Shown here one piece after another: positions 38,849 through 39,463 of a stretch of DNA of 62,663 bases. Each line of letters opens with the position of its first letter. Within the stretch, counting starts at the first letter, position 1. The stretch comes from a virus. Position numbers and translations under genes: made by a program. The notes beneath the pieces are model-generated. The model saw nothing but the letters and a program-made list of their open reading frames with translations. It was not told where the DNA came from and ran no database searches. The DNA lies in UHGV virus genome UHGV-1374842; one strand, given 5' to 3'.

Positions 38849-38897
38849 AATTTTTCGTATATTTGTAAGGTATTAGTCGCGGTCAGCACTGCAGTTT

Positions 38898-39198
38898 GTA
38901 AAACATCTGTAAAACATCAGTAAAACAATTGCGACACAAATATACACAAAAAACAAGCAGAACAAGAAGAAAAGAATAAAAAAATGCGGCTTGGAGATAT
39001 CTTAGAGGGCGTAAATGCCATTTTAGCGATGTCAGAGCTTAAAAAGTGAAAATTCCCAAAATTCAGAACCGGAATCTGAAGTTCTATCCTTTAAACTACG
39101 GGGGCAACTATCTGAAAACCAATTTATTGCTCGATATGCTTATTTTCTCAAAATTGTCGACCGTAAAACATACGTAAAACACAAGGTCGTTTCCAGCA
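38898..39198. promoter_or_regulatory. repeat-rich non-coding region: GTAAAAC(A/G) x6 in two phased clusters
   Basis: Same-orientation copies at 38898, 38909, 38920 (11-bp phasing), 39153, 39164 (11 bp) and 39191. Between them lies a near-palindrome TTCAGAACCGGAATCTGAA (~39065-39085). Located next to int, so an attP arm-site array is plausible. Confidence 0.45.
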
Positions 39199-39403
39199 TT
39201 GTAAAACGCGCTGATCCGACGGCAAAGATACATATTTATTTGTAATATTAATGGCACAACTTTTGGATTTGTTATGCTGGGTTTAAATAGGTAAGACATC
39301 ATTACAGTCATTTCTTTAGAGCACCACTCTGTCGTGAGACACAGCAGGTGCTCTTCTCTTGTATATATGCTTCTTTCTAAAGTAGTTAATGGTAGTTGAT
39401 TGC

Positions 39404-39440
39404 GTAAAGATAAAGTCCATCGGCAATGGATATTCATTTG
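39404..39440 (+). promoter_or_regulatory. copy of the conserved promoter-like element GTAAAGATAAAGTCCA, then 14 nt, then TCATTTG
   Basis: Lies upstream of the virion-protein operon start. Confidence 0.45.
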
Positions 39441-39463
39441 CTTTGTTCCCGTTAACAATGTAA

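Follow-up and report, generated by a model that had tools for sequence, protein, structure and literature searches.

What is the function of the 615 bp that lie, in a phage genome, between a gene for a tyrosine integrase and genes for virion proteins? The DNA analysed is a single stretch of 62,663 nucleotides, called here the window, and an earlier note, made from its letters alone, had seen in this gap a candidate phage attachment site (attP), with phased arm-type repeats on either side of a core. This layout beside the integrase gene is now supported by homology, through a core that is a tRNA fragment, through host-phage junctions found in relatives and through a repeat spacing conserved in 12 attPs. 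Judging from sequence, we consider it very probable that the gap is the attP of a temperate Bacteroidota phage, combining the 5' half of a tRNA-Arg(CCG) gene as its core, phased arm repeats and a putatively heterobivalent integrase.

37631-38848, minus strand: tyrosine integrase gene (int), 405 aa (Pfam and PHROG)
38849-39463, 615 bp: the putative attP gap, from the int start codon (38846-38848, minus strand) to the next gene

The next gene starts at a TTG (39464) or, more likely, at an ATG (39476). To judge by its sequence the gap is non-coding: no ORF inside its 615 bp has a Pfam or PHROG match, and in relatives (alignment A1) it contains frame-breaking indels, with lengths that are not multiples of three. 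Its sole long ORF, 39108-39458 (116 aa, TTG start), was rejected as a gene because it lacks a family match and shows indels in relatives. The gap is indeed AT-rich (GC 0.36 versus 0.47 for the window), but the core, contrary to what had been claimed, is not: the tRNA-like segment has a GC content of 0.455.

The most conspicuous feature of the gap is its repeats. Of the seven copies of GTAAAAC in the whole 62.7 kb, six are in the gap, all on the plus strand, just as previously described; 0.04 would be expected in 615 bp (Poisson P about 7e-12). Among all 7-mers of the window this one clusters most strongly, with 6 copies where 30 shuffles gave at most 3-5. The first cluster, 38898/38909/38920, has the 11-bp spacing and the place assigned to it. 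The second is equally real and 11-bp phased, but it stands at 39163/39174/39201, the positions first given (39153/39164/39191) being each 10 too low.

38898, 38909 and 38920 (38898-38927), minus strand: P arm, three 11-bp-phased copies of GTAAAACA, candidate arm-type sites
39163 and 39174 (11 bp apart; arm 39163-39208), minus strand: P' arm, two copies of GTAAAACA, candidate arm-type integrase sites
39201, minus strand: P' arm, third site, GTAAAACG, candidate arm-type integrase site

Read along the direction of the integrase gene, GTAAAACA is TGTTTTAC. The P-arm repeats are conserved in two related loci, L018 and L019. The number of 11-bp units varies: the window has 3+3 and L019 (4170-4480; integrase 99% identical) has 4+2, a difference that may have arisen in the arm arrays by slippage or unequal exchange. 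A regulatory role had also been considered, on account of a likeness to a late-promoter element, GTAAACATA; this likeness has no statistical backing, with 14 matches at one mismatch or fewer against 9.2 expected, a figure equalled by 8 of 100 shuffles.

Phased direct repeats of 11 bp adjoining AT-rich DNA might also bring to mind the iterons of a replication origin, and the cumulative GC skew does reach its minimum near 35-39 kb. This minimum, however, falls where the genes change strand, Pfam and PHROG show no replication initiator next to the repeats, whose neighbours are the integrase and virion proteins, and the repeats keep a fixed distance from the recombination crossover, not from an AT-rich unwinding element. 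The association of an initiator gene with such an element, expected of an iteron origin, is not what is found here, and we give this reading hardly any credence. What the repeats flank is instead a piece of a tRNA gene.

39062-39105, minus strand: attP core, 5' fragment (positions 1-44) of tRNA-Arg(CCG), from the Rfam tRNA model and alignment
39068-39074, minus strand: anticodon loop TTCCGGT, with 5-bp stem arms at 39063-39067 and 39075-39079
39106-39162, unstranded: spacer from the tRNA 5' end to the P' repeats, conserved in length, variable in sequence

On the minus strand, from 39105 to 39062, the core reads GCCCCCG-TA-GTTT-AAAGGATA-GAAC-T-TCAGA-TTCCGGT-TCTGA-A. The D-arm is present after the 5' strand of the acceptor, and the anticodon arm, whose anticodon is CCG, is complete, while the T-arm is absent. 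An alignment to the Rfam tRNA model, in which the T-arm is deleted, scores 16 bits and so falls below threshold. A scan for the anticodon arm in 185,579 species-representative genomes retrieved 53 genuine tRNA-Arg(CCG) genes, mostly from Bacteroidota MAGs, with about a dozen from cyanobacteria (mostly Rivularia). The core of the window aligns with these genes through position 44 and diverges beyond; none of the 53 adjoins a prophage of this phage's family. Because the core matches positions 1-44 of tRNA-Arg(CCG), the near-palindrome TTCAGAACCGGAATCTGAA already remarked upon (39062-39080) can be understood more sharply, as the anticodon stem-loop of a tRNA-Arg(CCG) fragment on the minus strand. 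When 11 attP variants are aligned across the loop, GATTCCGGT is the sequence that they have in common. Identity with the tRNA ends after GGT in three relatives (L079, L080, L164), after TTCT in a fourth (L013) and after TTCTGAA in the window, and in relatives carrying the other half of the tRNA it begins at TTCAGA, that is, at or beside the anticodon loop. The loop 39068-39074 may be the strand-exchange (overlap) region, framed by inverted core-type sites.

Another tRNA-like gene had been named as a place where the attachment site might lie instead. This candidate, a 92-nt tRNA-Ala(TGC) at 32788-32879 (minus strand), was set aside: it is called by ARAGORN only, Rfam does not support it, and at gathering thresholds Rfam finds no tRNA in the whole window. 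The doubtful ARAGORN call overlaps the ORF 32565-32903.

Relatives of the phage allow the layout to be compared. They had to be looked for outside the usual catalogues: blastn of 37000-41500 matched no INPHARED phage, the integrase retrieved from IMG/VR only relatives of at most 39% identity, none of them carrying the tRNA core, and two core-pattern scans of IMG/VR gave no match. A triple-repeat pattern brought up four unrelated IMG/VR contigs, one with a chance fivefold tandem of ATATGTAAAAC, and these were discarded. By contrast, ENA, Logan and JGI assemblies yielded 131 integrase homologues at E <= 1e-20, many of them on contigs of 60-78 kb, with 32-99% identity to the integrase of the window among the 120 homologues listed. 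From these sequences the phage group looks common but uncatalogued.

The loci compared were the fetched ones whose integrase is 53-99% identical to that of the window and whose contig reaches far enough upstream. Every one has the anticodon-loop sequence GATTCCGG 175-231 bp upstream of int, on the same strand, and phased GTTT(T/A)AC repeats occur on either side of the loop in 12 of 12 related attP regions. In the window the P' sites are 93, 104 and 131 bp from the loop and the P sites 150, 161 and 172 bp from it on the other side. The relatives follow the same measure: each of the 12 has a P'-side repeat at -93/-94 from the loop, seven have another at -104/-105, and the P-arm sites range from +139 to +193, most of them between +150 and +173 (mainly +150, +161 and +172). 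The spacer 39106-39162 is among the most variable stretches of alignment A1, yet the distances from repeat to loop remain constant. The window therefore has non-core repeats on both sides of its core (3 + 3 copies) in a geometry that 12 related attPs display.

This geometry does not depend on which half of the tRNA the attP carries. The 5' half is found in the window, L019, L018, L076-L080, L013, L164 and L172. Two other loci, L073 (1230-1565; integrase 86% identical to that of the window) and L157 (3480-4000; 61%), have, besides the anticodon arm, a T-arm and the 3' strand of the acceptor; their crossover loop and arm spacing are those of the 5' type. A third, L074 (integrase 77%), appears to be of this 3' type as well, its contig (1-210) starting within the T-arm, 210 bp upstream of int. 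In L013:9812-9850 and its equivalent in L015, GGCAATTTTCGAGAATCCCGC, located 3' of the anticodon arm, resembles a decayed T-arm. Such a remnant hints, as far as sequence can tell, at an ancestral attP placed within a complete phage-borne tRNA gene, either half of which would have decayed later.

If the fragment is a recombination site, integrated relatives should be joined to host DNA within it. The earlier note had advised searching metagenomes for such junctions, and this advice proved fruitful in part: three contigs of attL form came from two related lineages, but none for the exact phage. In the first (L014, 3.3 kb), the host gene fabD is followed by a TATCTTTG box, also of the host, that lies 10 nt ahead of the tRNA, and then by the tRNA 5' part, in which a single base, A7 in place of G7, is peculiar to the host; from the tRNA onward, across the P arm and int, the contig is 99.9% identical to phage L013. 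The two others, L165 and L170, come from two other samples; their host portion comprises a pyruvate:ferredoxin oxidoreductase gene, a TATATTTG box and the 5' part of the tRNA. Their D-loop is that of the host, TTTAATGG, versus TTTAAAGG in the phage, and they are thereafter nearly identical to phage L164. In this lineage the tRNA identity terminates at ...GATTCCGGT, which, with the D-loop difference, places the crossover within a 22-nt interval that includes the anticodon loop (D-loop to GGT). By their sequence, the three contigs are attL junctions of the form predicted, a host 5' part followed by the P arm and int, and in each the displaced host 5' fragment is seen beside int. Five further contigs, from another lineage, start inside or just before the tRNA fragment, as would be expected where an assembly graph branches.

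The corresponding search for attB in host genomes, also proposed at the outset, was unsuccessful: a 29-mer of the window core had no match in the 185,579 species-representative genomes, nor in IMG/VR. The difference between the host D-loop TTTAATGG and the phage TTTAAAGG explains the zero matches in the genomes, and the tRNA-Arg(CCG) gene that serves as host attB would start with GCCCC(C/T)(A/G)TAGTTTAATGGATAGAA. Exact look-ups of the window's proteins returned only short, low-coverage contigs from one sample; one of these ends at 39043, near the core, with a coverage insufficient for interpretation. Since neither junction nor attB was found for the exact phage, the evidence for its attP is by homology, and comes from relatives whose integrases are 56-61% identical to its own.

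The gap also contains signals that look transcriptional.

38937-38944, minus strand: TATATTTG, probable int promoter box, matching the Bacteroidota -7 consensus TAnnTTTG
39223-39230, minus strand: -7-type box TATCTTTG, directed toward the P' repeats and the tRNA fragment, conserved in alignment A1
39318-39354, plus strand: terminator-like hairpin followed by a T-rich run, from folding and conservation
38851-38866, plus strand: left arm of an inverted repeat, with its partner at 38936-38951 (16 nt, 88% complementary)

Across the window TAnnTTTG is not enriched (32 found versus 31 expected), so that promoter assignments rest solely on position and conservation. The box at 38937-38944 is invariant in A1, and the exact box is present at +121 to +144 in 9 of 12 relatives; on this sequence basis it is probably the int promoter. 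Since the P-arm sites are located between this box and the int ATG, the integrase probably represses its own gene. The inverted repeat brackets the three P-arm repeats with a TATATTTG box in each arm, and these two promoter-like boxes face one another across the P-arm sites, that of the left arm pointing rightward. The box upstream of P', at -149 to -204, is present in 10 of 10 5'-type attPs and in 0 of 2 3'-type attPs, as expected if a phage with the 5' half must supply the promoter of a rebuilt tRNA. The box at 39223-39230 may thus be the phage-supplied promoter of the tRNA rebuilt at attR. The hairpin lies in an 81-nt stretch that folds at -20.3 kcal/mol (z = -2.3); eight relatives keep it, with an invariant loop region (GTCGnGAGA) and compensatory changes in 6 of its 12 pairs. 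The hairpin resembles a rightward terminator, which may insulate the virion genes from transcription coming through attP or attR. A scan with sigma-70 and terminator consensus sequences was put aside as uninformative for a Bacteroidota phage.

As the gap has a terminator-like hairpin and three promoter-like boxes that are conserved, and as no junction was retrieved for the exact phage, it might be taken for a divergent regulatory region and nothing else, its repeats being operators for int and the virion genes, its tRNA fragment a dead relic, and the attachment site being located elsewhere. Yet the junction contigs of two related lineages break exactly within the homologous fragment, both fragment and repeat spacing are conserved across relatives whose integrases range from 53 to 99% identity, and a relic would not retain an intact anticodon stem-loop amid diverging flanks. 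We find this interpretation very improbable and keep to that of an attP.

Which protein reads the repeats is a separate matter, and here the integrase itself has to be considered. It matches Pfam PF13102 (SAM_5 core-binding; E 4e-6), PF00589 weakly, and PHROG integrase families, and consists of an N-terminal domain (about residues 1-100), a SAM-like core-binding domain and a catalytic domain. Its AlphaFold model (pLDDT 85.6) has a fold that matches those of lambda Int, XerA, XerH and Tn1549 Int; residues 5-73 are modelled as a three-stranded sheet with a helix. A search of PDB sequences with the integrase profile gave no match. Y383 and R349 are invariant across 20 homologues, so the neighbour of the gap is a tyrosine recombinase with its catalytic Tyr and Arg. 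N254 is likewise invariant in the alignment of these homologues, within an MG-x-N-x-PD segment that is presumably the place where Arg I would be expected; the absence of the first canonical catalytic Arg is a peculiarity of IntDOT-like integrases. All 20 family members match PF13102 and 11 of them PF17293 (Arm-DNA-bind_5) (best E 5.6e-5), the integrase of the window not being recovered at E<=0.1.

The integrase is a mosaic with a boundary at about residue 100. As cases in point, the window and L018 are 91% identical in the N-domain and 73% in the rest, the window and L073 63% and 93%, L074 and L076 51% and 99%, and L013 and L015 100% and 82%. The window and L018 have attP type and sequence in common, while L073 has a different attP type. 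From such discordant identities it appears that the N-domain moves with the adjacent attP, the two being inherited together, apart from the rest of the protein. This fits an N-domain that reads the arms, but physical linkage alone could also give the pattern. The TGTTTTACA repeats are a candidate target of integrase residues 1-100.

The gap could still be an attP whose repeats are bound by an excisionase (recombination directionality factor) or by some other accessory or regulatory protein in place of the N-domain. Direct repeats in tandem and in helical phase are typical of excisionase sites, as for lambda Xis and P2 Cox; a promoter-like box stands just upstream of each repeat cluster, which gives the clusters an operator-like position, and the integrase of the window falls below the Pfam threshold for an arm domain. 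Excisionase sites usually occupy one arm, however, and here the same motif flanks the core on its two sides, at distances that are conserved, which is the pattern of arm sites. In addition, Pfam and PHROG revealed no gene for an excisionase, the ORF of 102 aa that follows int having no family match there, and the apparent co-inheritance of N-domain and attP speaks against this reading. We regard it as unlikely, and retain the integrase N-domain as the preferred reader of the repeats.

The following mechanism can then be proposed. The core would correspond to the anticodon stem-loop of the host tRNA-Arg(CCG), with a phage copy that runs to tRNA position 1 (a '5'-half' attP). The core-binding and catalytic domains of the integrase would contact the two inverted arms of the stem, and strands would be exchanged in the 7-nt loop between them, while its N-terminal domain would dock on the phased TGTTTTAC repeats of the P and P' arms, folding attP into an intasome. 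Integration would create an attL in which the host promoter and the 5' part of the host tRNA precede the P arm and int, the form seen in relatives, and an attR made of the virion genes, the P' arm and the phage tRNA 5' half joined to the host 3' half, so that the tRNA would be rebuilt. Integrase bound to the P-arm sites would repress the int promoter, and the conserved box upstream of the P' sites would drive the rebuilt tRNA. In the attL contigs (L014:955-975, L165, L170) the host tRNA promoter stays on the truncated 5' fragment, aimed through the P arm into int. A terminator able to stop read-through from this promoter was not found between core and int in the homologous stretch of the window, which makes read-through from the host promoter into int possible.

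Several known systems help to place this site. As in the attPs of lambda, L5 and HP1, the core lies between P and P' arms, and arm-type sites recur at about 60-170 bp from the crossover; the helical phasing of some tandem sets, a predicted extra N-terminal domain of the integrase and an int gene abutting attP add to the likeness. Unlike these systems, the window has its six sites in a single orientation, its core is a tRNA anticodon stem-loop, and its integrase belongs to a Bacteroidota SAM_5 group that has no sequence-level relative in the PDB. IntDOT provides another comparison: it recombines as a heterobivalent enzyme, its N-domain binds arm-type sites, and these are several and lie asymmetrically about the core (PMC2817482). 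It belongs with the three-domain tyrosine recombinases of the IntDOT/NBU type in Bacteroidota, which the family of the window resembles by its SAM_5 and Arm-DNA-bind_5 signature; CTnDOT, however, has no tRNA target and tolerates overlap mismatches, whereas the target here is the anticodon loop of tRNA-Arg(CCG).

Where tRNA genes are the target, the Islander survey counted 2083 anticodon-centred attP sites and, in a total of 3919 islands, 159 that displace a 5' tRNA fragment versus 3760 that displace a 3' fragment (PMC4383910). Anticodon-centred attPs and 5'-fragment islands are already established classes, to which the window would add another case. It resembles sublocation A of Williams, in that the tRNA identity block ends at the anticodon loop, with a symmetric stem and a 7-nt overlap; in contrast to the usual sublocation A, its tRNA piece is the 5' part and not the 3' part, and the phage must therefore supply a promoter too. 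For KplE1 intS, the int promoter is located in an att arm and overlapped by sites for recombination proteins, resulting in autoregulation, an arrangement reported as widespread among tRNA-associated integrases (PMC2951348); the three repeats between the predicted -7 box and the start codon suggest, by analogy, that int of the window may be controlled likewise. In the tRNA-dependent lysogeny of actinobacteriophages, the match to attB is about 10 bp, the tRNA is destroyed and the phage carries a complete replacement (PMC10865867). These phages also pair a tyrosine integrase with a host tRNA gene as target, but the phage of the window has a 44-nt half that should rebuild the gene. This strategy was rejected for the window, its tRNA match being 44 nt and not about 10 bp, and no tRNA-Arg gene being present.

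Two other regions of the window deserve mention. A helix-turn-helix repressor-like gene (35838-36251) is separated from a leftward ORF (35457-35741) by back-to-back TAnnTTTG boxes (35691, plus strand, and 35756, minus strand; 35691-35763), and this region is probably the lysis-lysogeny switch. Further along, a single ORF of 4399 aa extends from 41241 to 54440; its homologue in L018 (4412 aa) contains polyvalent-protein domains, InPase, LPD1/3/5/38 and ART-PolyVal.

To be sure, as an attP site alone this one is ordinary. It nevertheless provides an attachment site, a probable target, tRNA-Arg(CCG), and a probable host phylum, Bacteroidota, for a lineage of temperate phages of roughly 63 kb that is absent from the copies of INPHARED and IMG/VR searched and common in ENA and Logan metagenome assemblies. 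The compact module formed by int and attP, about 1.85 kb, invites a trial as a tool for integration in Bacteroidales. The natural pairs of 5'-half and 3'-half attPs, with the same crossover and the same spacing, would be useful for following the evolution of tRNA attachment sites, and also for asking whether a prophage can control a tRNA of its host. In this respect we advance, tentatively and as a rather doubtful proposal, that attP is a swappable cassette, either a 5' half with its promoter or a 3' half about a constant anticodon-loop crossover and arm geometry, with which the N-domain of the integrase travels, and that with the former the prophage promoter takes over transcription of the host tRNA-Arg(CCG). 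If this were true, the transcript of the rebuilt tRNA would start across the arm sites, and expression of the host tRNA would be dependent on the prophage and possibly regulated by it.
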